IMG/VR virus record: IMGVR_UViG_3300021399_000008
Coordinates: 52,329 to 116,328 of that record
Origin: a virus
Lineage: Duplodnaviria; Caudoviricetes
Reading direction: 5' to 3' (one strand)
DNA: 64,000 bases
Shown: positions 969 through 60,529 of the stretch, in pieces
Position numbering within the stretch: the stretch's first letter is position 1
Layout: the number at the start of each line of letters is the position of its first letter
Position numbers and translations under genes: made by a program
The notes under the pieces: model-generated
Seen by the model: only the letters and a program-made list of their open reading frames with translations
What the model was told of the DNA's origin: nothing
Databases searched by the model: none

Positions 969-1178
969 ATGATCTACTGGGATTACACGCTTAACTGGAA
1001 ATATATCGTCGACAAAATGGAAGAGAAGTTTGGACTTAAACCAGACTCTACAGAGAAGCTTTCTATGGGTGAGATTGAGAGGAAGATCGAAGAGATCTGG
1101 GTAGAATATGTAGATATTTTGGATAAGAAATACACAGAAGCTGAGATTGTAGATTCTCTGGACAAGGAGATAGTGTGA
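969..1178 (+). CDS. hypothetical protein
   Basis: AAGGAG RBS; tight packing with neighbours. Confidence 0.65.
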   Translation: MIYWDYTLNWKYIVDKMEEKFGLKPDSTEKLSMGEIERKIEEIWVEYVDILDKKYTEAEIVDSLDKEIV

Positions 1179-1468
1179 TGAATTCGCCATTGACCGCTGA
1201 AGAAGTAGACAAGGTAGCAAGACAGTACCTGTGGAAACGGCACTGGCTGGAGAGAAACACAGGCGAATAGTATATTATCTAGATGGACATGATTGCTTAT
1301 TCCAGCAGAGGTAAGAATCTGATCTATCGCTTTACAGATCCTGAGCTGAGTACCTTCAGTCAGGAATTTTTTATGTGTCTGTTTTCAGAATACGGAGAGA
1401 CATGGAGACTGTGGGATAACGAACCTACAGAAGAAGAAAGGAAAACTGCTGAGTGGAAGACAGCTTAA
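1178..1468 (+). CDS. hypothetical protein with two in-frame TAG (1268, 1280)
   Basis: ATG overlaps upstream TGA after an AAGGAG RBS; reads ERNTGE*YII*MDMIAY into the 1283-1468 ORF. Confidence 0.7.
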
Positions 1469-1698
1469 AGATGTGTCCGTTATGTGGCGGCAACGCGGCT
1501 ATAAGTTTCTGGCTGGAAGAAGATGTTTACAGCTACGCAGCCGGAAGAATTCGATGTTCTGAATGCTTCGTAACACTGCAACGTCGGTTGGAGATTCAGT
1601 TCAACACGGAGAAGAATCCAGGTGAAACCTTTATGGATCTTGAGAAGGAACTGAAAACAACTTGGAACAGTCGCATTATGGAGGTAGCAAATGTCTGA
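1453..1698 (+). CDS. Lar-like (restriction alleviation family) zinc-binding protein
   Basis: LKMCPLCGG...CSEC...WNSR pattern. Confidence 0.65.
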   Translation: MEDSLKMCPLCGGNAAISFWLEEDVYSYAAGRIRCSECFVTLQRRLEIQFNTEKNPGETFMDLEKELKTTWNSRIMEVANV

Positions 1699-1837
1699 AA
1701 GAACAGTAATCCCGCATCGGAATTATAAATACCTGTCCGACTACTGGTGTGAGTGCGGCTGGCATCTTGGAAAGAAAGGTTCAGTGAAATACTGCGCTGA
1801 CTGCGGAAGGAAGATCGATTGGAATGATTATCGTTAA
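1691..1837 (+). CDS. small zinc-ribbon protein
   Basis: GGAGG RBS; CECG...YCADCGRKIDW. Confidence 0.6.
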   Translation: MSERTVIPHRNYKYLSDYWCECGWHLGKKGSVKYCADCGRKIDWNDYR

Positions 1838-2030
1838 ACGAGCCAAAGAAGGCATGCGGTGTAACTCGTGTTGTTCGGAGACTGGTGTCTACAATATAAC
1901 GATGTTCCGATATACTGGCCAAGGCACGCAGATTTCGTTATGTGATGCTTGTATCGCAGACGTATACAAAGGGTATATTAAATGTAACAACGGCAACAAC
2001 GAGGTAAAAGAGCTTGAACGAGATAAATAA
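1824..2030 (+). CDS. hypothetical Cys-containing protein
   Basis: CNSC...LCDAC; overlaps both neighbours. Confidence 0.55.
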   Translation: MIIVKRAKEGMRCNSCCSETGVYNITMFRYTGQGTQISLCDACIADVYKGYIKCNNGNNEVKELERDK

Positions 2031-2639: not shown

Positions 2640-2643
2640 AAAC

Positions 2644-3878: not shown

Positions 3879-3884
3879 GAATAG

Positions 3885-4121: not shown

Positions 4122-4136
4122 CTGGGAGACTGAATA

Positions 4137-5108: not shown

Positions 5109-5110
5109 AA

Positions 5111-5284: not shown

Positions 5285-5297
5285 ATAGGAGTTTAAC

Positions 5298-5411: not shown

Positions 5412-5431
5412 CAAAAATTGGAGGATAAAAC

Positions 5432-11952: not shown

Positions 11953-12441
11953 TTATAAATGTTTGTCCTTATAGTAATCACGCATTGACTTTACTGAAAT
12001 CCTGATATCATGTTCAGGATCTGTATAGAATTTTGCTCTGGCTTCTGACCACGGAGATTCTGATTGGACACTAGCTGCGAGCCACGTAGTTCCTTTGTCT
12101 CCGTATTTCAGGATAACAGTGGATATAACGGCCCTGCCTTTAACTGGAATCTTCTCAGAATCTCCGATCATATCTGCAGCTGTGAGATTCGCCCTGTCTC
12201 TGTAGAACTCATGGAGTTCACGGCAGAAAGGTCCGATCCTCCAGGCTTCAATAGCTTCGTGGAACAGCTTCTTCCTGAAGGTTGTGTAGTACCAAGCTTG
12301 TGAATAATATACCTAGAGCTGGAGCTTCATAGGGGATATTGGCCCTGTAAGCTCGACGATGTATTTCGCGACATCAAATACTGTGACCGTATCACTATCG
12401 ATACTGATTAAATTTTTTATTCGCTTTTCTTTGTTAGCCAT
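11953..12441 (-). CDS. Panacea (DUF4065/SocA/GepA) domain protein with in-frame TAG (12313-12315)
   Basis: VFDVAKYI...ISPMKLQL*VYYSQAW...LFHEAIEAWRIGP...ESPWSEAR. Confidence 0.85.
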
Positions 12442-13113: not shown

Positions 13114-13599
13114 TTAGTTCGCCTCAACCGGAGCAGATTGAATCTTCGCTATAAAATCTTCCGGGATATGGTTATGCATACCATTCTCAGTATAGATTTT
13201 GTACATCCGCTCTAAACTGGTCAGTTCATTGTATGAGATTGCGTTACGTCGAACGCCGTAGTGCATGTAAGCCCACGTTAACTTTTCGTTAATCAGGGAA
13301 CATGTCTGACTGTCGAGGCTTTTAACCTGTTCTTTTATCTCATCAATACTGCCCATAATCTGGCGCATGTCTTCTTTCCGATCTTCGTCTCTGCGCTACT
13401 GTTCTTCTCTGATCTTCTTTATTTCTTCCATCACATCAGCCGGGAACTTCTTAGCCTCTTCGATATCGAGATGATGCTGGTGGATACGACGTCCAATAAC
13501 TTTAATATTTTTCCAGAAAGCAACAATAAGACCTACTCCGGCTGCGACAGCTGCGAAAGCACCCCAGCCGGAAGATATAAAACTCATAAAATCAGACAT
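13114..13599 (-). CDS. membrane-anchored lysis-region protein with in-frame TAG (13396-13398)
   Basis: ORFs 13396-13608 and 13114-13368 are one frame joined through EEQ*RRDE; N-terminal TM; YKIYTENGMH tail. Confidence 0.7.
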
Positions 13600-13631
13600 A
13601 AAGACCACTCCAATTAAGTGGTACTTCTGGT

Positions 13632-14534
13632 TTATCCAGAAATACCTGCGTTTTTTAAGGCATTTACCAGGGATCTGGCGGCCTCGATGTCTAACTCGAT
13701 TCGTACTGTACTCGAGGAATTCGGCTGATTTTCTCCAGTAATTTCTGTAGATCCGGGAGTTATCTGAGCTTCGACTAAGAACTCGGATTTAATATAGCCG
13801 TTAATCGGTCTTCCTCTGTACGTTAATTCGACTTTAGACCAGGTATCGTTTACCTGTTCAGCCGAAACAATAGTACCGACAGGAAGCTGGATAATCCTGT
13901 CGGAGTCTGTAGAAGGACGTTTACGAACGTTAACGCTCTTTCCGTCCTGAGAAGTAATCTTAGCAGTATACATCGCATCGCCACCTGTCGTTATAGGAAT
14001 TTCAATAGTTACTGTGTTCTCGTAGTTTACGTCCTTCAGCTCTCCCCAGTGTGTCCAGCCTGTAATTTTCGACTGAACTACACCTGTCTTGGAACCCTGA
14101 GCTTCGATTACTTTACCTTCTCCGATATAGAGACCGATATGATAATACCGTTTCTTAGGATCTGGGTCGTATTTAAAGACAGCTGTTCCAGGTAGGAGAG
14201 TCTTACCGTCAGTACGGTAACCATTCCGCTACTCACCCTTAGCTGAGAGAACGTTCTTAGACCAGATAGAGTTTGAGCCATGGTAGATTGTTTTACCGTG
14301 GCGTTTATAAGCCCAGACGAAGAGTCCGCTGCAGTCAGAGACTTTATGGCCGATCCACTTCTGCCCATACTGAATAGACAGGTTGTAGTCAGAGTCTCCG
14401 CTGTGTCTCTTAACCTAGTCATCGTAGCTGGCACGAGTCCAATTCTGGCCTGAGGTTCCGAGGATATAGCCGAACTCCTGTTCGAGAGCTTCTTTAAAGT
14501 CTTTAATCAGATCAGTGTACAGGATCTTTCCCAT
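13632..14534 (-). CDS. endolysin, NlpC/P60-like peptidase plus SH3b, with two in-frame TAG (14415, 14229)
   Basis: GYILG...WIGHKVSDCSGLF...YHGSNSIW...HIGLYIGEGKVIEAQG runs in frame into the SH3b domain (VNVRKRPS...GYIKSEFL). Confidence 0.88.
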
Positions 14535-14549
14535 CGCACTCACCTGACC

Positions 14550-17603: not shown

Positions 17604-17700
17604 AAATGTATTTAGAATCGGAAAACGAGAGTTAAAGAGCAGGAATGGTTGAAAAGGAAATAGGTTTAGTCATGTTTGATGCTAAACCGGAATGAAAAGG

Positions 17701-17743
17701 AATATCCCCTAAGCGGCAAAAGTCGCTTAGGGGATATTTTTTT
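17701..17743. terminator. terminator between convergent units
   Basis: AATATCCCCTAAGCG/CGCTTAGGGGATATT followed by a T run. Confidence 0.8.
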
Positions 17744-18026
17744 AGCTGATTTCTCTGAAGTAATAATGAACGGTAATTGTTCCATCACCGTTTTCAAGGA
17801 TTTGAGTCGAACCAAGTTCCATATTATAAAACTCATAAATATCGCGGTCAGTATCAACTTCACGAATACGAACAAAAGATTTATCAGCATCGCGAATTGT
17901 CTGAAAATCAGGGAACATTTCAGTATAATTACTGTAAACCACCGTTACGTCTGGGTTAGGGATGATACAGGTGTTAATATCAATGCGTGTCATGTCGTTA
18001 AACCAAATATAAAGTTTCTTTTCCAT
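17742..18026 (-). CDS. hypothetical tail-associated protein
   Basis: AAAGGA RBS; follows the receptor-binding candidates. Confidence 0.65.
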   Translation of the reverse strand: MEKKLYIWFNDMTRIDINTCIIPNPDVTVVYSNYTEMFPDFQTIRDADKSFVRIREVDTDRDIYEFYNMELGSTQILENGDGTITVHYYFREIS

Positions 18027-18059
18027 ACTGAAATCCTTTCTTGATAACGATAAAAGTAA

Positions 18060-19270: not shown

Positions 19271-22200
19271 TCATAAACAAAAACCAACAATAACATCACA
19301 ATTATTTGTTAATGCGGTTCTGTTAGCGTACGCGGTAGCGGTCGACGTGTTCGGAACTGTTAACCCATAATTAGATTCTGCAGATTCTGCATTAATGCTG
19401 GTTCTCTACCAGAAGGATGGTACACTGCTCCCCGATGTGGTATATTTTATTCGAAGTACAACGTTACTTATTTGATCATATACTGCGCCGCTGTTTTCTA
19501 TCTGATACCATGCGCTAGCAGATTTTCTAAGTCCTAATTCTCTGCTTGAAAAAAGCCATATATCTTCGTCTGAAGTAATATCGGTTCCTGTTGGATCTTT
19601 TGTTACTTTTTTAACAGTTTTTATATTGGATTGTATGATAGTTGGAAGTTTGCTTTTAAAACTTTTGATTACGCTGCGAAGCTCAAGCTCTGAATATGGA
19701 ACAGCTTCGTCAACACTGTGTGCCCTATGTGAAAAAACGGTTGTCCGAAAAGCCCATGTTGTTTTTGCAGTAGAAGCATCATTATCAGATAATATATCTT
19801 TGTCAACACCGATTAACATTGTTTGATATCGTTGTCCGTCGGCTTCTATTGTTTTTATGGATCCTATCGGGTATTTATCTACGTTTCCAGAATTTATATT
19901 ACTTATTATAGTATCCCAATCGTCTGAAATGTCTTCAAAATAGCCTAAAGGATAACTATCGAGCGGCGCAATCATATACTTACCCCACGTAATATGGCTT
20001 CTATATAAATCTAACAACTCGGGACGTACGTAAATCGCTCCAAGTTTCTTTTCTATGAAAGTGCCGGAAATCGCGTTTACATCGTTTATTTCAGCAACAG
20101 TTGATGAATGGATTACTAAATGTTTTATAGGCTTGTTCCTCAGCTGAGCGTTGAGATTATCGGTGTTAAACTGAAGATTGTCTAATTGTGTAAACTCAAC
20201 CGTTTTTAAGTTTGAGCACGAGTTAAGCCCATTGGGGCCAATATAAGTAAAAGGACCGGAGATTTTTGTTAATTGTCCTTGACCAATCAACCCTGAATCA
20301 GCTATAGTGGAATTATTTATTGTTTCATATATTTCCAGTTTTCCCCGAATATATTTAGTCACATCGTTGCTTGCATCTGCGTATTGAGCTACACAAACTA
20401 GATTACCGACAATATTAATAGGCTCTGGTGACCATCCTGTGAACAAATAGTCATCGGTATTTCCAGTGCTGTTGTTTGTGGGTGTTGTTTCGGTATAATT
20501 CGCACTGCCGCCATACGGAACATTATTCACAGTCTGAAGCGTATTATTATCCCAGTTCTTAAACGTCACAGTAAACGTTCTGAGTTGACTCGTAAACACA
20601 GGATATAAGTCACGATCTTCAGTAACATTCTTCAATGCATCAGGATCCATTACTCCATCTACATACCGCGCCCAACCATTTGCAAATGTGAATGTATGGC
20701 TTGCGCTCTGCGGTTTGGTTGGTGTAGATCCAGTATAAGTGACAGCTGCTCCATTAGCGGAAGTTTTTGTCTGAAGCACGCTGGTTCCATCGTAATTATA
20801 GAAACGAACCGTGCAATTAATTGTGTTGTAATCTATCGTGATATCAGGATATTTATCTTTGATTTGCTTCGTAACTGCACCGCTTACAGTGTCGATATGG
20901 ATCGTTCCATAAACCTGAGCTGTGTCTACGTTAAGCCCCTGTTCGTTGCGACCGTGTAAACTGTCAAGTTTTGCTTTTATCGCAAGCAGTTCAGTCTCAT
21001 CTGCTACTGTCCAATCGAAACCAATTAAACGAAGATTACTGCCTTCAGTTAATCCGTTCACCAGAGTTTTTGTATCGATAATATTACCAATATTCTCCAG
21101 CGTAACGGTTGTCAGATTCTCTTCGGAAGCTAACACGAAGTCTGTAATATTCGGCTGATTAATAATCTCAAGGTTTGTGATCGTTCCAGGCAGATGCAGT
21201 GTTTTAATTATGCCGCCGTTAGGAAGCTTTACGCCTTTAATTGCAGTGCCATCGAAGTAAATATGTTCGATATTCTTACAACCAGATAAATCAGGAGGGG
21301 TTGTAAGCTTATCGCCATAGTTCGAACAGTTACGTACGTCTAATGTCTTCAGCAGCGTGTTATTACCAAGCGTCAGGTTCTCCAGGTTCGGGTTATTATA
21401 GTTCGGATCTGCGTCTCCAAGCTTAAGACTCTGAAGTTTTGTAGCATAGGAGAAGTTCGCGTAACCTACCAGCAGCGGAGAAAGATCGCCTACACTCGCC
21501 AGCTGAGAAGACGAGTAGATATAAACTTCGGTATCGTTCATCCTGTCGAGAGGACATGGAATTGTAACCGAAGTATTTCTTGGAGTCTTTCTGGATACCT
21601 GCTCAACGTCCTGAGTACCAGAATCCTTCGAGCCGTACTTAATTGAAACATAGATATCAGCATACGGAGTTACTGTTATATCCGCTTTGTTGTAGGCACG
21701 AAGAGTAATAATATCAGACAGCGCATTACCTGCGAGATATTTACTGTCAGTGAACTTAAGTCTGTTATAGAGCCACCACTTACGCTGTTCGGTTTTACTG
21801 CCAAGAGCCATCTCGAGATAGCTGCCGTCACATTCGTCGATCAACGGAGCGATGTATTTATAATAAGCGTCTTCGTTAAAGATCGTCTCAGGCCATTTGG
21901 ATTGATGGTCTTCGAACATCTTTTCAATAGCCTCGTAGCTAAACGCATCGTTAGCTCTCAGGTCTTTGTACATTCTCTTGATCTGAAGACCGAAAGCCTT
22001 TCGTACGTTTCTCCACTATACGCTTTCACGACCGTTGTAAACGTCCTTTTTGCCGTTATTATAAGTATCCTCGTCTTCGAGGTCGTAAGAGAAAGTCAGG
22101 TGACCTTCGTTGTTACATGTCTGTTACTTTGCTGACCTGTTCATACAGGCGGGAACGGTTCTTCTTTAAGTGGTCTGGTTACCTCTGACCGTTCCTCTCG

Positions 22201-32700: not shown

Positions 32701-32715
32701 ACAATCACCTCTGAC

Positions 32716-32757
32716 AAAAGAATACCCCTGTACTCCTTGTTGAGTGGAGTACAGGGG
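32716..32757 (-). terminator. terminator after the tape measure gene
   Basis: CCCCTGTACTCC/GGAGTACAGGGG. Confidence 0.65.
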
Positions 32758-32767
32758 GAGTGTCTGT

Positions 32768-41700: not shown

Positions 41701-44700
41701 TTCCATTGATCTTTGCGCCGTTCTTCTTGCTAAAGTATTCAAAACTTAACCCAGCCTGCTGTACTGAATTGGTTACAGCCTCAAGCAGAGAACTTCTATT
41801 TCTGGCATTAACATTTCCTAGAACATTATTATCAAGGAAGTTCGAGGCAGCTATAAAGTCGCCGCTGATAGCATGGTTAAGAGCTTGTTTGTTTGCGAGT
41901 TTCGCGTTAAGGTATTGAGTTTCAAGATCTTTGTAATCCTTTTCGCTAACCTGCTCCTTAAGCCCTTTATAGTTTGTTTTAAACTGTTCCAGCTCGTAAT
42001 CGTAATGAGAGAACCTGCTGATTTTCTTAGCTTCATCGTCTAAGTTCTTATTTTGTTCCTTATTCATTCGCTCGATGAACGAATAGGATTCCTCCATCGC
42101 TCTGTTATATCTATCCTGAATTACGTGAACAGGAAGCCCATCGTAAGAACCAGGACCAGATGAACCAGAAGGAGGATTGTCATCATCATACCTTTTGTTC
42201 TTCCTTTTTTGTTTACGGCTGGATCCTTTATTTTTGCGCTTACCTGTCTGCGGAGGAGGTGTAGATTCTGCAGGAGTTTCTTCTTCCTCATCATCGTTTA
42301 GTCCTTCGACGCCCTCGTATTTAGCGGTCTCTTTTGCGAGAGCCGCACGAACAGAACTGTAGTCTACGGCTTTGCCTTCTTTAATCTGCTCAGTTACGAC
42401 GTTCAGAATCTTCGCTACTTCGTTGTAGTACGCAAGAGCTTTTGCGCCCTGTTCAGCAGTATATGCCTGAGTATCAATCTTAATACCACCATCAGGGTTC
42501 TTCAGATTAAAGTTGAGATAACCAGTAGTAGATGTTTTGGAAGTTCCGTCTTCGTTAAGTCCTTCTCCTCCAAGAAGAACCGTTCGTAATGTTTTCCCGA
42601 ACGAACCTTCGTAAGTGCCCTTATTAGAACGGTCATTCAGAGCTGCGTATAAGATTGCCTGAAGTGGGTTGTGCGCACCGTTTGACTTATAGTCGAGACG
42701 CATAATCTGCCCGTCTTTATTTTGGAGAACTACGTCAGTAGCTGCAGTGGCCTGATCTACGTCGGACGGGAGATCCCAAGCATTCTTATGTCTTTGTTCG
42801 GTAGCTATAACCTTGTAATCCTGAAGCATCCCCATAGACTCAATAAGACGCTCACGGCCAGTCTTAATCAAGTCATCTCTACTACTGTTAAATAATTCCG
42901 GGTGATCTTTTCTCGCCTGAGAGATAAGCTCATCGAACTTAGCCAGACCTGCATCTACAGCTGCCTGTTTCGCTGAATCAGATCCGGCTTCGTTTTTATT
43001 CTGGCTTTCTATCCGTTTATTACCCCATGCTTCCATAGCGTTGTGCATGATGGTTCCGAATTCAGATTCGGTCGTCTTCTCATCGGCGGGTAAAATGCCT
43101 TGGAGCTGAGCTACAAACTTGTTCGGATCACGAATGAAGTTTCCGAGATCTGTAATAGAAAATTTGGTTGTTGTAGCTCTTTTGTTAATGCTGGTATTTG
43201 GATCGTTCTTTATACCTAAAGCTTTACGACGCTCCTCCATTTCATAGAGTCGCTGTCTCTCTGCCTGGTATTCAGGGTTAGCCTCATCTGTGGACCATGC
43301 GGTTGAATGGTATCCATGGTCAAGAATATATTGACCATTCTCGCTGAGTCCTAAATTAGCTTCGGTTAAACCACGCTTCTTCAGAATCGCTAAACTTTCG
43401 GAATACTTTCTCCACTTTGACAACTCGTCAGTGTTATCGGAGTCTGACATCTCGTCGTTATATCTCGACATAAGAGCTTCGAGTTCTGCGACGTCTTCGT
43501 TCGATACGTAGGCAGCTCTACCAGTGTAAAGCTGTTCCATGATGCCGTACCACTTCTGGAGATACTGAGCCTGAGCGGAGTTATTACCTTTACCAAGTTG
43601 ATTCTGAAGAGCTCCAAAGAAAGCTTCGAGGTTTGTGTAGTTTCCTTTTCCTTGCGAACGTTCGGCGTTAGCTGTGAGAATAGACATCATGCCGTTCGTG
43701 TCGTAGATCGTAGGCATAGCACGACCTTCAGCCAGAAGAGTAGCATAATCATAGTCATTATTCTGTACAGCTCCGGTCATCTTTGAAAGAACAGGAGCAA
43801 ACGACTTACCGATTTCTCTTGTCCACGCTTGGTCAAACTGAGAGATTTCAGCGAGATGTTCTTCCTTAATACTGGAAGCCGCATTATACGATTCGCTGTT
43901 TCTGATAGCCATCTCTGCAGCTCGCATAATCTCTTCTTTGTTCTTCTTATTGACGTTGACAATACTTGCGTCTTGCGTGTTCGTTTGAGCCATAACATTT
44001 GTAGCTATTGCGGCTCTGTCGTAGAAAGACTGAACAACATCGTCTCCGACGCTTTTGTATTCATCCGCTTCTGTTTTTACATCTTCGGCTGATTTATCAA
44101 TAGCGCCTTTTTCCTTCTCCATTTTCTTTCTTGCGCTCGATAAAGCTTCAGACCAGAGTTCGTTCATATCGACAACTGCTCTCATAGTTTCGCCAACCAT
44201 AAGAGTCATGAAGTCGCCGTCGAAGTCAGCTGTACCAGACTGATAAACAGAACCTCTGGAGAAATATGATACGTTAGGATCGGCACCAAACTCTTCTAAT
44301 AGCTTGCCCCAGTCCTCTGCTCTTGAGATTCTGGCTTTATAATTTTCTTCTGATTCACCGTTCTGACGTTCAACCCTGAGAACGTTAAGAAGCTCTGTGA
44401 TTTCACCAAGGTTAGAAGGAGTTCTGCCTCCGGCAATATTCTGAGCTTTGATGTTTGTCGCGATCTCGGAGTCTTTCAGAATCGTAGAAAGTCCGAAGCT
44501 GTTAATCTGAGACTTCAGAACATCCTGAGCGTAAGGAAGAAGCATGTTGCCGGGAGACATAGCCGCAAGAGCTAACGTTGTCTGCCCCGGCATGTAGATA
44601 GCACCAGTTGACAGTTTATCGGTAAATGCCTTTCTTGTTGCTTCGATTCTTGCCTGAGCTTCCTGAGACGAAAGCATGTCGTAGTTGCCGTTGCGGATTG

Positions 44701-47176
44701 CTTTATCTAATTCTGAATCTGTATTGAAGACGTGCTTGATCTGACCTGGCACGGTTTCAAGATCTGTGAGATATTTATCAGCAGCAATCTATCTGAGTCT
44801 GTTAAACTCAGGACTGGCTTCCAAATGTCTTGAAAGCTGAGCAGGAATAAAGTCTTTGTCAATATTCCAGTTAGCGGAACTGCGCATAACAGTTGTGCCA
44901 ACTCTTTTATTTAGTTCGTAAATCAGGTCTTCTGCTTCCTGGTAACTGAATTTCCTGCCGTCGTTATGTTTGAAGATCACATCCTGATTCTTTAATGTGC
45001 TTGAATCAGTAATGCCACCATATTGTTCATCCATAACGTCGACGAACTTTTCACGAAATTCGGCAAGCTGTTCCGCGTTTTTTAATGCTTTTTCTAATGC
45101 GTCTTTATTTGACAGCTAAGGCATCCACTTCGCTACATCGGCTTCATTTGCCATAACTGTAGGCATGTAGAAATGGTGTTTGCCTTCGCTGTCCAGTGTT
45201 GTAGCACCAGACGCCTTTAGAAATCTTCTATAATCAAGAGGGAGCAGTGTTCCTTTTATTGATGGCATACGAGCTTGTACATCTGCAGTGAGATACTTAG
45301 TATCAAAAATATTCATTCCGTCGGCTCTGTCTTTCGTCGGAGTGCCTTTCCACTTGTAATACGCCTCCAGATTTACAAGAGCCGTGCGAGGAACATCAAA
45401 TCCGTATTCACTCTAATCCTCGCCAGTAGACCAACCTTTACTATCGTAGTTGAGTCCTTTTTTTCGATTTACATATTTTTCACTTTTGAGTGTGTTGCTA
45501 CTAAAAGATGTAAAAGGATCGTAGCCAACTTTATCCACGGCTGCTTTGCGCATATTTCTTTCAATGAAATACACTTCACCGTTTGCGTTTTTACCGCCGT
45601 ATACATAATCATGTCCATACTGAGAAAACCCATTATTAATAAGATCGACAGCCTGCTGCCACCGTTCCTTATTAATCATACGCTTCCCGTTATCCCACAG
45701 GAATGTTTCTTTCCCATTCTTCATGCCTTTCTCGAAAATGTCTTCAAGATCAAGAGCGATGACGGCTGGTGTTCCATCTTTTGTGCCATATGTATTATGG
45801 CCAGACATTCCAAGAAGACGGGTGTTTCTACTTTCAGAGACATCAATAAACCCGTGCTTCGTCGGGATAATTCTCTTGCCGTTCGCATCGAGTTCCTTCT
45901 GATCGAGAGGAATCGACACTCCGTTTTTAAGTTCAGTAATTGTATATTTCGGAGCCTGATACCGTTCCATCATAGGATCGATAATAACTCTTTGAGATCT
46001 GGTGTACTGAGCTCTGTTGGCGTCGCTGATCGTCTTCTGAACTCCAAGATACGGATTCAGATACTGATATTTACCAAGCGCACCCATTGCCTCATAGCCC
46101 TGCTCAACTCGTCTGGATGTTTTATTCGCAAGACTTTTCTGGACTTCAATGTCTTTTGAATTAAGATCTTTCCTGAATCTTGGCGCACCTTGAAGAGCTA
46201 CTCCGAATTCTTTGAAGACATACCCGGCAATCTCATCCATCTGATCCTGAGTAAACTGTTCGAGAGCACGGAGGTTACCCTCACTCATAAAACCTGCACC
46301 AGAACGGACAATGCCTTTTCTGAGAAGGTTGTTGTGAGCGGCCATCTTAACGAGTTCAGCAGTAAGCTCTTTAGATACTAAACCGTTATTTCCTAAAGAA
46401 GCTCTGGTTGTACCACTTAAGTCGAACTTTAAATTCTTAAAAACATCAGGAAGTCTTTCTCTGAATGTATTGTAGTTTCTTGCGTTTCCGATAGTGATGG
46501 CGCCGTAAGAATGAGCAGCCGCCGATCTCATATAATCCTGACGCATCGACTTGTCCAGCATATTAGATACCATAAAGTCGATCAGTCTGTCGGATTGTTT
46601 CTGAGTACCAAAACCAGAAAGAACGGAAGCAGCCTGTGTGTACTGCTTGTTCTGCTGGAGCATCTTACGAATACCAGCATCTGTTAAACCGGAACCGTGA
46701 GCACCCTGCATCATGTGGCCAGTAAGATTACCGACAACATTTCCTAAGCTGGCTATCTGCTTATATGTAGTTACGAGATCTCCACCTGCAGCATTAAGCT
46801 CTTTATAAAGATCGATACCTTTACGTAAGTCCTGAAGATCAGCTGAAGCGAGACCAACGGAACGAAATATCGTATTAGCCTGATCCTATCCAAGATTCTT
46901 ACTGGTAATCTGTCCAATCTCTTTCACTGAACTTGTAAGACCAGTAATTGTCCTGGACATCATTGTCTGCATCTGGACAGGGAGTGAAGCGAAGTCTGTA
47001 TATAAACCTTTCACCTCTTCGCGAAGTTTGCCAACAGAACTGTTAAGATTAGACATTGTATCTTCGCTGAGAGTTTTAGATGTGTATTCCGACTGGGTAT
47101 CAATGAAATCCTTAAACGTTTTTTGAGCTTCATTTGTTTGTAGATCAAGCTCCATACTGACTTTTGCGTCTGCCAT
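32768..47176 (-). CDS. 4802-aa tape measure protein fused to a two-barrel RNA polymerase-like domain and a PD-(D/E)xK domain; six in-frame TAG
   Basis: Seven track ORFs share one frame separated only by TAG (46886, 45413, 45116, 44789, 38747, 35942); TMP core near 40100-41000; position between tail chaperones and Dit. Confidence 0.88.
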
Positions 47177-48078: not shown

Positions 48079-48483
48079 TTAAGACTCCTCTTTCTTATCT
48101 TTTTTCGTTAAGGACACAGCGTCCTTAAGCCAACCCATAGACGCTACCGTACTGGCAGAAGCTTCGGGTATCTTAACTGCACCAGAATTAATCGCGTTAA
48201 AGATCGCGTTCCCTCCACGTTTCTTTCCAGTAGAGAACGGGTTCACACTCTCGATTACTTCTGTTATTGACTTACCAGCTTTCTCATCAAACAGCGTCCG
48301 TCCCAGCAGATTAGACTGACTTTCGAAGCTGACGCGTTTCCGCAGGACGTGCAGGACTTGATTGAAAAAGTTCACAGACATATTGTTTATCTGTTTCTCG
48401 TCGACGATTCCAAGATAGACGGCAACAATAGCGACCGCGTCTTCTAACGTTATTGGTTCGTCCTCTTGGCCTCCCGGTTTTTT
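48079..48483 (-). CDS. tail assembly chaperone, frameshifted (GT-like) portion
   Basis: The -1 frame from A AAA AAC (48483-48477) is open into ORF 48079-48381. Confidence 0.75.
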   Translation of the reverse strand, partial: KKPGGQEDEPITLEDAVAIVAVYLGIVDEKQINNMSVNFFNQVLHVLRKRVSFESQSNLLGRTLFDEKAGKSITEVIESVNPFSTGKKRGGNAIFNAINSGAVKIPEASASTVASMGWLKDAVSLTKKDKKEES

Positions 48484-48956
48484 GCGGCTTCCTCTTTCTC
48501 TTCGATCTTGTTTATACGGCGGTAGATCTCGAGGATCTTCTCGATATCCGCTGCAGTCATGTAGTCGAAGTTATCACGGACGAACTGTTCGTCGTCGAAT
48601 ACTGCGACCAGGAAGTCGAAGATAATCTGTAAGCCGTCTCGCTTCGGATCGTATACTCCCTGCTGAATCACAAAGAGTGTATCTATCGGGACATTCTCCA
48701 GAAGTCCTCTGGCTGAAGTCCAACCGATCCTGTAGTATTCAAACCGGGTCTCTTTTATTTCTCTGTCGATACCGTTTATCGTAATGATATTCTCGAGCTT
48801 ATGATCTACTGGCTGTCGATCACTTTTCTCAGAACCATTAAGGTCGGCCTTCTCGGCTTCACTCTTATTTAAGTCTGCTTCCTCGATAGCCGAAGCTTTC
48901 TACCCGTTGTCTTCAGATACTTCAGGCTACGAGTTCTTTACAGCCTTTCTGGGCAT
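48450..48956 (-). CDS. tail assembly chaperone (G-like); TAG at 48927 and 48900
   Basis: GAGGTG RBS at ATG 48956; follows the major tail gene; slippery site near the end. Confidence 0.75.
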
Positions 48957-49094
48957 AGTAATCACCTCTAGGATCTCTTCAGTTAATCATGTAATACAAT
49001 CGTAATATTTTAACGAATAAATTAATAAGTAGCTGAGGCAGGAACCCACAGCTACTTACACGGTTTTCTGTGCCGATCACCGTAAACGTCTTAT

Positions 49095-49189: not shown

Positions 49190-50008
49190 TTACGGGTTAG
49201 GGGTTTCGCCGCCTTCAGCGGGAGCAGCCGCACCCTGACCATAGGCAGCACGGAAGGTTTCCTTGGTCATATAGAACATCTCATAAGCAGCGTCATCCAG
49301 ACGGCCAGGATCCTCGCAGGATACGGTGAAGTCAAAGGTGGACGGGCTCTTATAAGAACCGGACATAGTAGGCACCTGGGTAATACGGCCATTGAACATG
49401 TGCACAACCAGGTAATGGGTAATGCCAGCGTCGGTGCAGTTCTTGCCGTCGTTGTAGACGGGGAACACAGCGTACACTTCGCCCACAGCACTTGCGCTGT
49501 TGTCGATCAGGACAGTAGGCACGTTCGTTACTTCGGTCTCGTAGGAGACACGGACAGCGCCAGTCACGGTCGCGTCGAAGGTCTACTCCTTGCCGCTCAC
49601 AGTGTACACACCGTCAGAGGCAGTCTCGCCAGCGGTCATATTAGGAATGAACACAGTGCCGTCCAGAGGAGTGGAAGGCAGGGTGATCTTGTGGGTGGTC
49701 GCGTCGGGAGTAGCTTCGGTGTAGGCGATGATGGTCTTCTTGGCAGCGTTCTCGAAGTTCTGAGCGTTAGCCATAGCCCACAGCTCAGAGTCAAACTGAC
49801 CCACGGTGATGTTCATATTCATCGTGGACTGACCAGGGATCGTACACACAGCATACTTGGACCAGCCAGCGTTAACGGAGATAGAGCCGAAATCGATATC
49901 GCTGGTGAAGTTCGTCAGCTTATCAAACACGTACTTCTTGCCGTCGCACCTCTTAAAGAATAAAAGAGGGACGTCGACGATATATCCACGTAAAGCCTGA
50001 ATATACAT
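49190..50008 (-). CDS. major tail tube protein; TAG at 49583
   Basis: Two ORFs joined by SGKE*TFDA; GC3-rich codons; position and terminator. Confidence 0.8.
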
Positions 50009-50942: not shown

Positions 50943-51654
50943 CAGCTTCTTTGTTACACTGGAATCTGAGAGTACCGAAGTCCTCAGTCTGAGATGTACC
51001 AGTGCGGTCTATGTCGACGATCAGGTATCGGTCTGTGTCCCACATAAACGTATCGTTAATATGAACCTTATCCGTCTGATCATTCATCTGGACAGTAAGG
51101 ATCGTGAGAGCTTTCGGAGAAACACCTGGAGTTCCCTGAGTTTCCGTATACTCCGGTCGACCGTCATAACGATAGATGTTGCAGGGGATAGAACCAGTAA
51201 TAGCCTTATACCCAGGGCCGCTGATTCTGTAACCGTCGTCGTCTACTTCCTCGTCTACGAATCTCTCGAAGACGAATTCAGAGTTACATACGAGAGCTCT
51301 GGACGGAGCGTTATTGCTTTCCAGCGATACGTGCCAGTCCAGAAGGTAAACCTGCCCGTTGTTCGAGGCAACGATCATGTCGCCTTTACGGATACCGCTC
51401 TCTACGTCTGCTCTGAAGTTCAGGTTATGGTCCATGTTAATATATCGACTCTTCGTGGAGTCAGGATATAATTCGCCACGGATAATTACAGGCTCGTAGT
51501 CTTCGGCTGTTCTGTCGAACCAGTCCTTTACAAGTTCAAAGTCCATAACCTGATTCGGTAAATCTCCGTCAAGAAAGTTTCTGAAATCATCTGCCAGAGT
51601 AGGTGGAAGATAGAACCTTGTCTTCGACGGGGCTGAAAGGTAAGGTCTAGCCAT
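50923..51654 (-). CDS. putative head-closure/head-tail joining protein
   Basis: IRKGDMI and HINDTFMWD beta-barrel repeats; gene order. Confidence 0.6.
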   Translation of the reverse strand: MARPYLSAPSKTRFYLPPTLADDFRNFLDGDLPNQVMDFELVKDWFDRTAEDYEPVIIRGELYPDSTKSRYINMDHNLNFRADVESGIRKGDMIVASNNGQVYLLDWHVSLESNNAPSRALVCNSEFVFERFVDEEVDDDGYRISGPGYKAITGSIPCNIYRYDGRPEYTETQGTPGVSPKALTILTVQMNDQTDKVHINDTFMWDTDRYLIVDIDRTGTSQTEDFGTLRFQCNKEAGGLHYD

Positions 51655-51675: not shown

Positions 51676-51990
51676 TTAACTGTCCCCTAACTTCGCTACA
51701 GGGACACCTTTATACAGAAGAACTTCAGGGAGTCGGACGATACTGTTTCCGAAGTTCAGGATCTCCCGTCTGAGTCTGAGGAACTTTTCAATTGAATCAT
51801 CGGACCATTCGTCGATAGGAGCGCCGTGGTTCATCTCAGTGAACTATGCCTCAATATCGCTGATCTAGTACATAAGATCTCTGCCTGTAGTTCTCGTATA
51901 TTCTTCGAACCCGGTACGTTTATTTACGGGCTCGTTTGTCTTTCGGTTTATATAATTTATCTCAACTTCAAAGTCCTTTAATCCGCTCAT
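51676..51990 (-). CDS. hypothetical protein with two in-frame TAG (51865, 51844)
   Basis: AAGGTG RBS; DLMY*ISDIEA*FTEM; fills an otherwise empty gap. Confidence 0.75.
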
Positions 51991-53254: not shown

Positions 53255-54238
53255 TTAGCCGATCATGTAGGCACCGATGTTCGGGATCTCGGTAGACACG
53301 AAAGCCACACCGCACTTCTCCCAGATCAGGGTTTCGAAGACCAGGTCATCGATGTTCTGAGAGGTCATGGTCTGGACGTTACCTTCGGTCACGAACTTCA
53401 GGTTCTTGGATTCGGCAGTCAGTCCACCGGGAACCAGATACAGCCAGTTCTTCTTCAGAATGGGAGTGGTGGTTCCGCTCTGGATAGCGTTAGCCAGCTT
53501 CAGAACAGGAGTGCCCTTGTACTTACCGATATAGCCGGAATCATTGTACTCGGTCTTCATAGCGTCAGAAGCATCCAGAGTCAGGGACAGCTGAGACACA
53601 GCAGAGCGGTCGCCCAGGATGTTCACGGGACCCAGGGTCTCGAAGTAATCCAGCTGAGCGTCGAGGGTATCGCCAACGATACCAGTACCAGTGCCATAGA
53701 AGGGGCTGGCGAACTGAGCGATAGCGCCATGCAGAACCTTTTCGATCTGCTGGAGCTTCAGGAGAGCATGGTTCCGGTTAGCTTCCTTAACCAGATCGGC
53801 CATGTTGATACGGTTCATCAGGAGATCCATAACCCTGATAGCAGGACGGGAAGCGATACGCTCGGTATCCACCAGAACCTGCTTATCGGCCACAAAGGAA
53901 CGATGGACGGTTTCGCCATCAGTATAGATCTTCGTGTGGATACCACCAGTGCGGGTGCTGAAAGCAGCCTTCTCGCCCCAGCCGATAGATTTAAAATCAC
54001 AGATATCATTCAGGAAATCCTACTGATTGTTCTGCTGATTCAGTTCGTTCATGGCGAAACGGATCGTCTGCGCAATCTGCTTGGCGGCATGTCCGTCATA
54101 GCCATCGTAGTTCTCGGCGAGCTCATGGGTGATGTCGTTGACTTCCTGCAGAACGTTGGAATCGATCCGCTCACCACGAGCCTGAGCCGCAATAACCTTT
54201 ACATACTTGGAATCACTATTCACTTTGATATCAGTCAT
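53255..54238 (-). CDS. major capsid protein (327 aa); TAG at 54020
   Basis: ORFs joined by NNQ*DFLNDI; GYIGKYKGTPVLKL; high-expression codon style; terminator. Confidence 0.85.
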
Positions 54239-54258: not shown

Positions 54259-54684
54259 TTAGCCGACCTTACCTTCGGCAGTCACGCCATACACAGTACC
54301 CACGGCAGGGCTTTCAGGACCACAGTTGGTCAGGAACACTTCGCCAGCCTGCAGGGGATGAGCCAGAGCCTTCTCACCAGCAGGAACTTCATGGTCGCGA
54401 GTGTCGTAAGCCTGACTGTCGTCAACCTTCGTCTCGTTGTGCACGAAGTAGTACAGCTTGTCCACGGCCTGAACTTCATAGCTCATACCGGGCATATTGT
54501 CATAAATCGTCTTAGCTTCAGCGGCTACAATCTTAGCGTCGGAAGAAGCGGCAGGCAGCTTCCATGTAGGAACGCCGTCCACGATTTCCTTCACGACGAT
54601 CATGCCATCCTTCTAGGGAGCGTTAGTTCCGTTGACGGCACCGTCATAAATATAGCCGAGATGTTTTTCCATATATCCAGCCAT
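54259..54684 (-). CDS. capsid decoration/minor head protein; TAG at 54613
   Basis: GGAGG RBS; MAGYM...AP*KDGMIV; GEVFLT...VGTVYGV. Confidence 0.7.
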
Positions 54685-56297: not shown

Positions 56298-57926
56298 TTA
56301 TGAGATCGAAGTATCTGAAGGCATCGATCCATCTTCATTCGACGGCTTCGGCTGTTTACCTCTGATCGCATTCTCAGGATCAGAGTTCCGTTCGTCGTCG
56401 TCCATCTCAGGTCTTCCAGGGCCATTACCTTCGCCGTCTCCGCTGTCGCTATCAGCTGAAGGGGAAACGATCTGAGAAGGAGTTGTAGCTCTCGGAGTAA
56501 GAATCTCGTCGATACCTTCGTTCAGTTCACGTTCGCGTTTCTTTGTTTCTACATCCATATCGAATCCGTTAAGTCGGGTCATCGACTCAGTAGAAACGAC
56601 ACCCTTCTGCCAGAGTTCCTTAGCTGTCTCACGGAGAGCTTTCTTCCCGGCGACATCCAGAGGAACGAAGTGGAAGAGGGGAACCTCGCTGATGTTATAA
56701 GAGCGCTCTTTAGAGAGCTCCTCTTTAATCAGGAGGTTAATCTTTGACATTGCTTCTTCTATCTCGCGGCGCATCATATCGATACGGGCTGTGACAGTCT
56801 GAACAGATACCTGGGCTGAGGCAAAGGTAGATCCATCTTCTGACTGACCTGTGACAAGAATACCGCTGACACCGCCAGCTGAGAGAATATCATTATTTAC
56901 GTCCCTGTACTTATCATACTGGTAGAGGTCGTCGACATCAATCTTTATAGCCTGAGGCTTCGCGAAGATCGAGCTGACAACGAGAGGGAACCCGGACATA
57001 CCTTTCGCGAAAAGGTCTCTGAGTTCGCCATATTCTTCGGCTGAGGATTCAAAGTCCATACCTTTCTTCTCGTCGCCGTATCCTACCCAGACAAAAGAGT
57101 GGATAGCCAGATTCAGCATAGCCTTCTCGTACCGACCAATAAGATCCTTCTTCGCGAGGGACTCAAGGGCTGAGAGAATAAAAGGATAGGCGTACCGCTG
57201 GTATGTAGGTTTCGGACCCTGTATTACTATCGTGTACTTCGGGTTCAGCTGTACATACTGGTCGCACCTGTTCAGCCCTTCGACTACTTCAGGCGGGAAA
57301 CCTTTAAAGTAGGTTTCGAGTTCGTTGTCCTTAATCCAGTTCTCTTTAACGTTATAGGCTTTCTGCCGCCACTCTGAGTAGATACCGGAACAGTCGAAGT
57401 CGACGATAGGAGTACCGCCGAAAGAAACGTTTCCGATAGAGCACTTCTGGATAGGAAGAGAAACAGGGACGCCGTTCATGAAGTAAATGAAGCAGTTATT
57501 ATAGGTAGCCTACTCAGCTGCCCAGGACTGAAGACGTTCTCTGAGTCGGATCTTCTTATAGTATTCCTCGTAGAAGTCTTTCGTCTTTACGTTCCCGGCT
57601 TCAAGGAACCAATCGTCTGTAAGGTACGGCTGATAGATATGATAGACGATACCGTGAACAATCGGGTCTGCGTCTTTATAGTAGTCAGCGAGTTCGAAGA
57701 ACTTCTTTATATTCGCTTCCTTATTCGCGAGAAGAAGCTTATAGTCGTACCCTTTTATATAGCCAGTAATAGGGGCACTGTAGATGTTCCCTGTATTCGA
57801 GTAGGGTTCAAGGATCTGAGCCTCCTGCTAAGAAGAAGCTCCGACGATTCTCTTTGTTGGACTCGGGCTGACAGAGGAGCCAGGCCGCTGGCCTAAGACT
57901 CTGCGAATATTGTCGAATACACCCAT
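56298..57926 (-). CDS. portal protein (542 aa); TAG at 57828 and 57510
   Basis: Follows terminase; DPIVHG; DILSAGGVSG; GRPEMDD tail. Confidence 0.85.
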
Positions 57927-57947
57927 CGGCCTACACTCTCCTTTTTC

Positions 57948-59606
57948 TTATAGACGACCGACAGCTCCGAGAGATCTTTTCCCGGAACGCTGTTTGCGCC
58001 TCTTGTTTTCTAGTTCGAGTTCTGAGATATAGTCATTACCCATCGCTAAGGCTGAATAGCGGTCCTTATGTTGTCCGACTTTCTTTACGTCATAGAGGAC
58101 GTTAGAGCCAGCTCCAGGTTTCGCTACGATATTCGACATCTCAACCTGAAGGGCATCGGTGTTATAGAAGACGGCTAACTGCTGACGGGCTAAGTCTCTG
58201 GATTCCTTATTAGCTTCGTCGATCTTCTGTTTTATTTCAGAGGAAGGTTTCGGAAGCTCAAGAGTCTTCTGTTCCAGAGCGACACGAAGGTTATTATAGA
58301 TTCTCTGGTTCAGGGCATTTACGGCTCTGAAAGGATGGAGAATCTGGACGGCATGAGGATTATAGTTCGGCTTATCGTCGACGACCCACGGAGGATATTC
58401 CTTCCCGGTCGTAAGGTCTGTAAACTCTGAGTCGAGGAACTTATCGAAAGCGTCGCCTATACCCCTGGCGTCGTAGATTATCTTTTCGGTATTCGGGAAA
58501 CGGAGATAGAGTTTACGGATAAACGTAGCTAACTCATCGAGCCCGTTACCGTTAAAGGCTGCGATATACACAAGCTTACGGTGGAAGGAGCCATCGTTCC
58601 TTTCGGTAAACTTCAGGACAACAGCTACGGCATTATCGGAACCTTTCGCCTGAGAGGTAGCTATATCCAGACAGATAACGTATCTGGAGGTAGAGTTCTT
58701 AGGCTGAGTAAGTTCGATAGTGTCGAGGGTTCGGCAATCCGAAACCATCGAGTAAGGGAAGGCTGAGTCAGAAGTACCACCTACGAAGATCGAGCCGAAG
58801 TTCATGTCCCAGATAATAGAGGGCATCGTTTTCCGCTGTTCCTCAAAGTAGGACTTCGTGTTTATTCCTTCCTCTATAGCCGCTAAGTAGTCGAGGGCAC
58901 AGGCGAACTTACGGGTATCGCCGTTAGCCTGAGCATTCAGAGTCTCCATAAACTTCTCATAATACGGGTTACTCTTCTCACAGCCGGAGGAGATCATGAG
59001 GATTTTGGACATCGGTTCATTATAGGTATTGTGCCGAGCTAAAGGTCTGACCCAGTTCGTCATAGGAAGCGCGAGATCCTGGAACTTCTGAAGGTCAACG
59101 TGTAAGGCTTCGTCGACGATCAGGAAGTTTGTACGCTGGCCGACACCCTGATCGATATTACCGGACCAGGCATAGGAACCGTTCTTCCATGTAGCGCAGG
59201 TAAAGTCAGCTGAGACAGAGATAAGGTCACGGGTATTCTCGCGCATAAGTTCCGAAGTTATACCGATATCGTTCTGGGCTATGTCCTTCTAGTTACGGAG
59301 GACAAGTGTAGCGTATCTGGTATTTTCTGAACAGATAAAGATCTTAGACCCAGGATAGAGAACGGCACATACGTGGACGAGAAGGGCTGTAATAAAAGTC
59401 TTCCCATAGCCTCGAGACCAGACGACAGTAGAGAAGTCTGAGTTCCCGATAGCTCTGACGGCTACAGCCTGAGAAGGGAAGAGCTTTACTGTCGGGATCG
59501 TATCCCTGATAAAGATATCCCAATGAGTCCTGTAGTAGGCGATAAGCTATCCGAGGTTCTCATGGATACTGTCGATATTAATACGCTTCAGTACAGTTTC
59601 GGCCAT
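57948..59606 (-). CDS. terL: terminase large subunit (552 aa); TAG at 59547 and 59289
   Basis: Walker A SRGYGKT lies between the two TAGs; Walker B FLIVDEA; LDIA and HKDRYSA nuclease motifs. Confidence 0.92.
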
Positions 59607-59617
59607 ACGGATCCTCC

Positions 59618-60529
59618 TTAACTGTCGGAGCCGATAGCCGCGACGATGTGGTTATAGCGCTGAAGGATACGATCTATATCGTCCTCAGGGAAGACAACTC
59701 CGTTCGGGACGTTATAGTCCGAGAGTTCTAGGGAGAGGACAGCCTGAGCCCACGAACCTTCCTCTTTCTTCGAGTCGTCTTTCGCTCTCTTACAGGCTGC
59801 AAGGTTCGTAGACTTCATCATCATATCGTACGTAGAGAGAGCGTCCTTAACGACCTGGAAGTCACACTTCCCAGCCCGGTAGAGATCCTGAGCGTTCGCG
59901 GCAATAAGAGACTGTACGGCGAGCTTACGGATCTGGTCCTCTAAGGCTGCGTCGTTCAGGTTATCGATATTCAGGTCCCGGCAATACTTCTCAAGGTACT
60001 CGAGTTCATGGGCTGAGTAGTGGCCGTTATAGACTGAGTTGTAGTACTTCTTATCCGGGTCCTTCTCTTCGATTACATAGCCGAGGACTTTAGCCTCAGG
60101 ATAAGGAATGTGCCGACCGTCCTTATCTTCATGGGGTTCGTATTTATAGTTACTGACCTAGAAGTTAGGGATGTGCTGGCAAGTAACACGATCGAGAAGA
60201 ATCTTCTTTCTGTCCTGACCGGAGTGTTTATACGTGTCGTTCTGGAGACACTTCTTTTCGGCTACGGCACGGGCACTGTCCCAGATCGTTTCGGACCAGG
60301 CTCTGTTGTTTTCCCAGAAGTACTCACGAACCTGGTCTTTCGTAGCGAGGTGGCTGACACAGTCACGGCACCACAGGTCTTTCCCGAGGTTAGACTCGAA
60401 GCCGATGTTATCGTAGAAGTCTGTACTCTCGTTCCGTGGCTTGCCACAACGGGAACAGTTTTTTGTACGCTACTCGTTCGCTTTAATCTTTCGGGGTTTC
60501 TGGGGGATAACGTTTTTTAATTCAGCCAC
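59618..60529 (-). CDS. zinc-finger protein upstream of terL (possible small terminase); TAG at 60470 and 60158
   Basis: CSRCG...DFY...WCRDC; one frame from GTG 60529 to TAA. Confidence 0.7.

Follow-up and report, generated by a model that had tools for sequence, protein, structure and literature searches.

The window analysed in this work, a stretch of 64,000 nucleotides, comprises bases 52,329–116,328 of the single 116,328-bp contig IMGVR_UViG_3300021399_000008 from the IMG/VR database, and our subject is the amber codon TAG, which occurs in frame within many of its genes and for which we propose a reading as leucine. The contig, which carries a direct terminal repeat of ~128 bp, is the complete genome of an SPbeta-like siphophage from gut or rumen, and the window represents its late half. 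The large terminase subunit (TerL) shows 25–31% identity to those of Clostridium phage c-st, phiCD211-like phages and SPbeta, the head proteins match YonB and other SPbeta families, and a blastn search of 7.6 kb against 50,697 GenBank phages gave no relatives at the DNA level. The genes for packaging, head and tail occupy the minus strand between ~60.5 and 19 kb of the window, which also encodes an integrase, a Panacea-domain gene and an NlpC/P60 endolysin. Clostridia are the probable hosts of this SPbeta-like lineage; a scan of species genomes with the portal protein gave two contigs of metagenome-assembled genomes, from Acutalibacteraceae and Alloprevotella, as a weak hint to the host, and the scan of JGI metagenome contigs with TerL gave three loci only.

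With translation table 11 the late genes appear broken up, whereas the listing of open reading frames (ORFs) gives full-length and abutting genes when TAG is taken as sense. We found 30 credible TAGs in 18 genes of the window, which are in frame and read through, and PHROG and Pfam matches cross them in TerL, the portal, the phrog_4088 protein, the phrog_2729 virion protein, the distal tail protein (Dit), the NlpC/P60 endolysin and the Panacea protein. A preliminary description of the sequence had listed 34 in-frame TAGs in 20 genes; these TAGs are real and lie where it had put them, but the count was too high, mainly owing to doubtful N-terminal extensions (integrase aa10, ORF 17649–18044 and 48450–48965). 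For the integrase the TAG at aa10 probably precedes the true start, as the Pfam match begins at aa101 and the ATG ORF at 10097, and the TAG of ORF 17649–18044 lies in such a doubtful extension as well. The minus-strand structural, tail, lysis and Panacea genes between 11.9 and 60.5 kb hold 28 of the 30 credible TAGs, and the remaining two (1268, aa32, and 1280, aa36) are found in a putative 97-aa ORF on the plus strand (1175–1468), which was called from ORF structure alone and gave neither a family match in Pfam and PHROG nor homologs. All 13 TAGs at 48–60.5 kb are kept in independent assemblies that are ~95% identical in DNA (L001–L004 and L002; IMG/VR, three sample ids). As these assemblies differ by ~5%, sequencing errors and pseudogenes are excluded, and since no TAG-to-sense substitution occurs among them they give no information on the inserted residue. 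A few early genes outside the window carry TAGs too, such as the ORF at genome positions 31776–32333 with three of them, the density ratio being only roughly estimated.

That every convincing gene ends with TAA or TGA, as the preliminary description had stated, holds: hardly any gene of this genome ends with TAG, and the end-like TAGs at 45413, 38747, 35942, 32338 and 19406 all proved to be internal by homology. The giant tail (tape-measure-like) gene of 4,802 aa (32768–47176, minus strand) contains six TAGs (46888, 45415, 45118, 44791, 38749 and 35944), and we compared it with 20 long records of relatives. Relatives using the standard code possess a single uninterrupted giant ORF of 4,637–6,779 aa (3,348–4,085 aa in two incomplete stretches), the giant ORF of this phage grows from 2,001 aa with table 11 to 4,802 aa with TAG as sense, and three recoded relatives (G005, G006 and G007) reach the giant size only with TAG as sense. 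In the BLAST comparison the 4,802-aa ORF is collinear with the giant ORFs of the relatives over aa 26–4802. To our knowledge such giant tail ORFs, with up to 6,779 aa in the relatives, are among the longest phage genes. In the Dit-like protein (Sipho_tail, 396 aa, 31603–32793, minus strand), which matches PF05709 and phrog_202, the TAG at 32340 (aa152) falls into a column occupied by valine or isoleucine in 18 homologs (V10 I8), showing that it is internal and not a gene boundary. For the tail fibre-like protein of 900 aa (19271–21973, minus strand), which has its TAG at 19408 (aa856) within a WWLRS-type C-terminal motif, an exhaustive phmmer search found 4,591 relatives, several of which align through aa899–900 to their own C-termini and thus past 19408. 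Two early genes outside the window (genome 28018–31407 and 17188–17604) show a TAG 4–10 codons before an in-frame TAA or TGA; their functional end may be at the TAG, perhaps as the sole such genes, and suppression would add a short tail to their products.

The other genes carrying TAGs, all of them on the minus strand, are described in the following from the packaging end of the window downwards together with their homolog columns (residues with the number of homologs). The 303-aa gene upstream of TerL (phrog_3314, 59618–60529, PHROG match at aa21–297) has a TAG at 60472 (aa20) in a variable column and a second one at 60160 (aa124) in a column led by methionine (M37 F6 L3 I3), where the nearest relative L015 has CTC for leucine. 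TerL itself (552 aa, 57948–59606, phrog_2 match), whose tblastn alignment to the TerL of c-st, phiCD211 and SPbeta spans aa12–540, contains TAGs at 59549 (aa20) and 59291 (aa106), the latter in a column with L43 I14 F1 and TTA in L015. In the portal (542 aa, 56298–57926; >300 full-length homologs with ~50% identity) the column of the TAG at 57830 (aa33) is variable with D/E and that at 57512 (aa139) shows Y38 L17 I9 F5 with CTT in L015. They are followed by a head-module gene of 141 aa (54259–54684) with one TAG at 54615 (aa24; V35 I11 L4 M1), the capsid-like protein of 327 aa (53255–54238; phrog_4088 with an E-value of 3.8e-31 over aa44–324, YonB family in the relatives) with one at 54022 (aa73; L46 T2 M1), a 104-aa gene (51676–51990) with two at 51867 (aa42; L14 I12 V9) and 51846 (aa49; A27 V5 L2), and the virion structural protein of 272 aa (49190–50008; phrog_2729 match at aa17–245) with one at 49585 (aa142; I22 V8 L6). 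The two TAGs of a 171-aa gene with a tail-chaperone/adaptor-like C-terminus (48450–48965), at 48929 (aa13) and 48902 (aa22), are the weakest sites that we counted, as they lie in an N-terminal stretch absent from most homologs (27–34 gaps of ~35), and they are conserved in L002.

In the tail module, most of the six TAG columns of the 4,802-aa gene are too poorly aligned for a call of the residue, aa588 being F3 I2 L1. A tail protein of 1,448 aa (27245–31591) has its TAG at 31444 (aa50; L14 I3 F1), and in a 195-aa gene (26641–27228) the phrog_16164 match at aa9–130 spans the TAG at 27105 (aa42), with too few homologs for a column. The tail fibre-like protein of 999 aa (phrog_14959, 23022–26021) has a TAG at 25964 (aa20) with no homolog column; when it is read through, its ATG start lies 13 nt after the upstream gene compared to a gap of 91 nt otherwise. 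The column of aa856 in the 900-aa fibre protein shows L15 T5 M1 W1. In the endolysin (NlpC/P60 and SH3, 303 aa, 13632–14543; PF00877 and PF08239) the TAGs at 14417 (aa43) and 14231 (aa105) have columns of L48 Y41 A4 and L92 M20 I5 F2, respectively, among 120 homologs. The neighbouring 164-aa gene (phrog_4105/1009, 13114–13608) contains a TAG at 13398 (aa71) inside its phrog_1009 match at aa12–107, an uninformative site as only two homologs are present, both with R. Finally, the Panacea-domain protein (SocA-like antitoxin, 162 aa, 11953–12441) has one TAG at 12315 (aa43) inside its PF13274 match (31 bits), where nine of nine independent homologs have leucine in the motif KLQKL|VYYSQAW.

For a quantitative reading of these columns we used the >300 portal homologs mentioned above, whose alignment gave 80 loci in a scan of IMG/VR; the longer records were extended over the tail module or, for the main recoded genomes, to their full length, and codon-aware alignments were built for 51 gene families. 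Most relatives have no in-frame TAG (58 records, 172,652 aligned codons) and therefore provide clean reference columns. Following the logic of Codetta, emission probabilities were calculated with hmmbuild after exclusion of the focal clade, and for each codon they were added up over its columns, a procedure that called 56 of the 61 sense codons of this phage correctly. The 15 family columns gave leucine for TAG, with valine at -3.0 and isoleucine at -4.2 log units, and three further strong sites (endolysin aa105 and aa43, Panacea aa43) were obtained from two database searches. In the final likelihood with 18 TAG columns, each with at least five homologs and the own clade left out, all other residues fall behind leucine, among them valine by -9.2, isoleucine by -9.3, alanine by -19.9, methionine by -24.5, lysine by -32.3, tyrosine by -35.6 and glutamine by -36.5 log units, and the posterior for leucine is 0.9998. 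As raw likelihoods favour common residues, which is seen in ATG being miscalled as leucine, we resampled 18 sites for each true residue and found that other residues reach the observed leucine advantage in at most 0.4% of the draws (isoleucine ~0.0006, valine 0.004 on the L-V measure, methionine and glutamine 0/2000 each). The TAG sites are inside the range of true leucine sites, on its lower side (log likelihood -34.8 vs -30.4 ± 4.1).

The strongest single columns are endolysin aa105, Panacea aa43, capsid-like aa73, TerL aa106 and aa50 of the 1,448-aa tail protein. In L015, the closest relative with sense codons at some of the sites (portal fragment 82% identical), five of the TAG sites are occupied by sense codons, and three of these code for leucine (CTT, TTA, CTC). 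Leucine instead of glutamine is what the preliminary description had proposed from family motifs, and the homolog columns at the phage's own TAG sites bear this out, favouring leucine and rejecting glutamine, tyrosine and all other residues. Those of its motifs that could be tested all agreed, with leucine in nine of nine for KLQKL of the Panacea protein, in 15 of 22 for the WWLRS motif of the fibre (which stands outside the 18-site likelihood), L92/M20 for KGE*RNG, L46 for NNQ*DFL, L43/I14 for LVLRN*KDI and L14/I3 for RNGWRE*SF. We regard a reassignment of TAG to leucine in this phage as probable, at roughly 0.88.

A candidate for the suppressor is encoded in the same genome. ARAGORN found three tRNAs, all outside the window, namely tRNA(UAA) at 39146–39220, tRNA(CUA) at 39313–39389 and tRNA(UAU) at 44407–44481, the first two of which score 60.8 and 50.9 bits with Rfam RF00005. 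The tRNA(CUA) of 77 nt is located on the plus strand in an early/middle gene block, ~13 kb ahead of the window, and follows the paralogous 75-nt tRNA-Leu(UAA) after 92 nt. It has a G1·U72 and a C2–G71 pair, A73 after a 7-bp acceptor stem, no encoded CCA, a D stem of 3 bp with an A13·A22 mismatch, and A36-A37-A38. Its D arm GCG-AAAUUGGCAUA-CGC matches GCG-GAAUUGGUAGA-CGC of E. coli tRNA-Leu in length and register, and the leucine identity set of A73, A15 with U48, G18G19 and A20a (numbering by analogy) is present. These are the key elements for leucyl-tRNA synthetase (LeuRS) of E. coli, for which the anticodon and the long variable arm are dispensable (PMC9976931). Among ~110 tRNAs of the family and of GenBank phages the nearest matches are all tRNA-Leu (81% to Vibrio phage Thalassa, 79% to the own tRNA-Leu(UAA) and 77% to tRNA-Leu(UAG) of G006), and in a search of 5,412 E. 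coli genomes the first 26 nt are 92% identical to tRNA-Leu. Judged by its sequence, the tRNA body is thus of the Leu type, but it lacks the canonical long variable arm of class II and has a variable region of 7 nt with U as its last base. The preliminary description had predicted a leucine suppressor with A73 and a long variable arm, of which A73 and the Leu-type D arm were found and the long arm was not; its idea of a single CAA to CUA change does not fit either, since the 7-nt variable region and a neighbour with the anticodon UAA argue against a simple one-step origin. ARAGORN labels any tRNA with CUA as 'Pyl', and in this case the body is closest to tRNA-Leu, the TAGs belong to structural genes of the phage and no Lys-like columns occur. 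An Rfam search around the tRNAs with relaxed threshold found no ribozyme or other RNA. Short-arm tRNA-Leu with sense anticodons also occur in the relatives, both in the standard-code G020 (19448–19524, 77 nt, UAA) and in the TAG-recoded G006 (51537–51610, 74 nt, CAA), which points to a regular use of the reduced architecture in this phage family. A short tRNA-Leu without long variable arm and with a sense anticodon was also seen in the T5-like Vibrio phage Thalassa (L184:301–377), and class-I-like tRNA-Leu seem, from these sequences, to be a recurrent phage feature.

Several relatives of the phage are recoded as well, and they differ in the residue. G006 and G011 read TAG as leucine and have a tRNA(CUA) with long arm and A73 (84 and 92 nt, respectively); their TAG columns are overwhelmingly leucine and many are invariant (L75, L72, L71, L65, L56, L51, L47), with likelihood gaps of at least 29 log units for G006 and at least 13 for G011, and G007 and G009 also give leucine. 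Pooling the 172 TAG columns of the Leu-type genomes resulted in 53% leucine, 11% isoleucine and 6% valine. A sister clade of the family (G005, G010, G003, L018, L020, L029, L011 and L012) has TAG at conserved serine columns (S64, S51, S49, S48, S45), and the likelihood with serine first, alanine at -7.3 and all alternatives rejected by resampling favours a reading as serine. Most members of this clade possess a tRNA(CUA) of 84–88 nt with long arm and G73, a Ser-type body, which in five of them directly follows the portal (L018:7811–7898, L020:2350–2433, L029:1461–1544, L011:4727–4813, L012:4642–4727) and in G005 adjoins tRNA-Ser(UGA) at 91017–91103; in G003 and G010 no tRNA(CUA) was found. Wherever a suppressor was found its body fits the residue, being either a Leu-type body with A73 or a long-arm Ser-type body with G73. 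In three genomes the suppressor has a phage tRNA of matching isotype nearby, directly beside it in this phage and G005 and at a distance of ~1 kb in G006. The suppressor described here, a class-I-like tRNA-Leu, is the most reduced form in the family.

In a portal tree of 74 loci the Ser clade forms one branch with 99% support and the Leu lineages (the clade of the window, L030/G007, G008 and G011/G009) are scattered among standard-code relatives, a pattern pointing to several independent events of capture or loss; this tree comes from a quick search, is unrooted (midpoint rooting) and has long branches, making the number of origins provisional. TAG stops are rare even in the standard-code relatives G013–G027 (0–4 of 27–37 long ORFs), which would ease codon capture and may predispose the family to it, and the fact that both LeuRS and seryl-tRNA synthetase (SerRS) ignore the anticodon would explain why leucine and serine meanings arose and not only glutamine. 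It is rather likely that within one family of SPbeta-like siphophages, which have giant tail proteins, TAG is a free codon that was captured repeatedly for different amino acids, for leucine in several lineages including G006/G007 and for serine in one clade.

According to our model the host LeuRS, which ignores the anticodon, should charge the phage tRNA(CUA) with leucine, and the charged tRNA would compete with the host release factor 1 (RF1) at UAG, which would then be read as leucine. As ~30 TAGs interrupt genes for the particle, the tail and lysis, the suppressor would be required for TerL, portal, capsid-like protein, 4,802-aa protein, Dit, fibres and endolysin to be made in full length. 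The TAGs are strongly biased towards the 5' ends of the genes with a median relative position of 0.22 (Kolmogorov–Smirnov test against uniform, P = 7e-5), and in 14 of the 18 genes (window 11953–60529) the first TAG is within the first 75 codons. The same bias is found in the Leu-type G006, G007 and G011 and not in the Ser-type G005. The 5'-proximal TAGs could thus act as a gate, with translation of the virion and lysis proteins aborting early when the suppressor is missing, which fits the gate proposed for code-15 phages (10.1101/2021.08.26.457843). The charging by the host LeuRS, the efficiency of suppression and the role of TAG as a timing lock are what we infer from these observations.

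Some of our results weigh against leucine as the meaning of TAG in this phage. The columns are less rich in leucine than those of an average leucine codon (mean fraction 0.23 vs 0.41 in the 15 family columns), the gap between leucine and isoleucine is at the 8th percentile of true-leucine draws, and about one third of the phage's TAGs are in variable or unalignable segments with no information on the residue. The long variable arm of the tRNA is missing, and its dispensability is documented for the LeuRS of E. coli and Aquifex, not for that of the probable Clostridia-type host. Minimum free energy folding of the isolated tRNA(CUA) gives no cloverleaf, which only the covariance model and ARAGORN do; such folding, which gave a cloverleaf for neither of the two tRNAs, is uninformative. 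A search for a release-factor gene (RF-1 domain) in the genome of the phage had no match. Moreover, the identity of the residue is derived from alignments. The modest leucine fraction could mean that TAG is read as isoleucine, valine or methionine, or as a mixture if the short-arm tRNA receives a wrong amino acid or is accepted by two or more synthetases, as the columns led by isoleucine or valine (49585, 54615 and 32340) and by methionine (60160) would suggest. We consider this improbable, as the likelihood gaps for these three residues and the resampling (P ≤ 0.004 each) oppose it, the strongest single columns are near-invariant leucine, and the tRNA combines A73 and the leucine D-loop set with none of the anticodon determinants for IleRS, ValRS and MetRS, the synthetases of isoleucine, valine and methionine. 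Furthermore, relatives with canonical leucine suppressors show the same mix of leucine, isoleucine and valine in their columns.

The 5' bias could also be taken as a sign that TAG mostly still acts as a stop that is partly suppressed, a regulated attenuator at which the inserted residue has little weight; the position of several TAGs in variable N-terminal segments would agree with this, as would a phage without its own release factor to shift the balance. It is nevertheless quite improbable, because essential virion proteins needed in stoichiometric amounts contain one to six TAGs each (among them the capsid-like protein, the portal and the 4,802-aa protein with six), and weak read-through would yield almost no full-length giant protein. 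In addition, TAGs stand at conserved leucine positions, implying selection on the inserted residue, and TAG is hardly ever used to end a gene. As glutamine is the sole meaning of TAG reported for phages in the literature that we searched, and public gene callers already translate this phage in that way, the ordinary code 15 as in crAss-like, Lak and other recoded gut phages has to be considered too. It is extremely improbable here, with glutamine absent or rare in every informative column, behind leucine by the likelihood gap given above and never reaching the leucine advantage in resampling, and with a tRNA whose G1, A73 and Leu-type D arm do not make a Gln-type body. Leucine thus remains the reading that we prefer.

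Leucine as the meaning of TAG is known from NCBI tables 16 and 22, the codes of chlorophycean and Scenedesmus mitochondria. Codon and amino acid are the same as in this phage, but these organelles have their own translation and a fixed code, whereas the virus would impose the meaning with one added tRNA in a host for which TAG is presumably a stop codon. In E. coli, amber suppressors that insert leucine (supP-type tRNA-Leu with CUA) are known both from the laboratory and from nature. They resemble the tRNA(CUA) described here in that the CUA anticodon leaves the leucine identity intact, as LeuRS reads A73 and the corner of the D and T loops, and they differ from it in being weak suppressors of mutations, while here a naturally fixed phage gene would serve ~30 or more essential codons, with its activity with the host LeuRS being predicted. 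According to the work quoted in PMC9976931 (Larkin 2002, Asahara 1993/1998) E. coli still leucylates truncated tRNA-Leu from which the long arm is missing. Another parallel among phages are short tRNA-Leu of 75–77 nt, as tRNA-Leu(UAG) of the Vibrio phages Thalassa, River4 and Pylo and a tRNA-Leu of Mycobacterium phage I3, with 81% full-length identity, a class-I-like form and a Leu-type D arm, although those carry sense anticodons for leucine and the tRNA of this phage reads a stop codon. In code-15 gut phages TAG is read as glutamine by an own suppressor tRNA (10.1101/2021.08.26.457843; phAss-1, PMC10607447), for which metaproteomic proof exists (PMC9523058). In common with them the phage has in-frame TAGs, flanked on either side by homologous sequence, in its TerL, portal, tape-measure, tail and lysis genes, an own tRNA(CUA) without an own synthetase, and TAG as a rare stop. 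The apparent late-gene bias of TAG in the phage would be compatible with a translational switch. In contrast, the residue would be leucine, whereas code 15 is defined by glutamine, the suppressor has the body of a tRNA-Leu, here a minimal one without the long variable arm, and the lineage is that of SPbeta-like siphophages with probable Clostridia hosts. As the preliminary description had also noted, TAG as leucine is new for phages with respect to the literature that we searched, in which we found no report of a phage reading TAG as leucine or serine.

Recoded phages are annotated with TAG as glutamine by default in Prodigal-gv/geNomad-style pipelines, MGnify and IMG/VR. Public protein sets indeed contain the endolysin (P0121, window 13632–14543) and the Panacea protein (P0241, 11953–12441) of this phage with Q at every TAG, and the portal of the relative L012 (P0013) is recorded as translating only with TAG as Q, showing that code-15 gene callers mistranslate this family. 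If TAG means leucine, and serine in the sister clade, the catalogue sequences are wrong at conserved core positions, which would affect structure prediction, metaproteomic searches and the synthesis of lysins. The meaning of a captured stop codon appears to be unfixed even within one phage family and seems to depend on which tRNA bodies can have their anticodon exchanged, in this case the substrates of LeuRS and SerRS. An amber suppressor of natural origin with a minimal tRNA-Leu body is also of interest for the engineering of the genetic code, and the question arises whether 5'-proximal amber codons serve as a translational lock on virion and lysis genes.

Some minor observations concern the relatives. 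A crude gain in ORF length had suggested a recoding of TGA in them, which was an artefact, as in-frame TGA was absent from the codon-aware alignments. In the Ser-type G005 and G010, one TAG stands at an invariant glutamine column (Q47) instead. Two fragments on which no tRNA(CUA) was found have too few sites to claim a third meaning, L089 (IMGVR_UViG_3300029305_005955) with three sites, one of them at an invariant tyrosine column (Y75) at portal aa148, and L014 with six sites, one of them at a column with Y29/S10/F8. When IMG/VR was scanned with a pattern of the Leu-type D arm and the CUA loop, 41 matches were obtained with none of the short type found in this phage among them, and five proved to be real tRNA(CUA). 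All five, located on contigs from other samples (L187, L193, L195, L199 and L215), are canonical Leu-type tRNAs with a long arm and A73.

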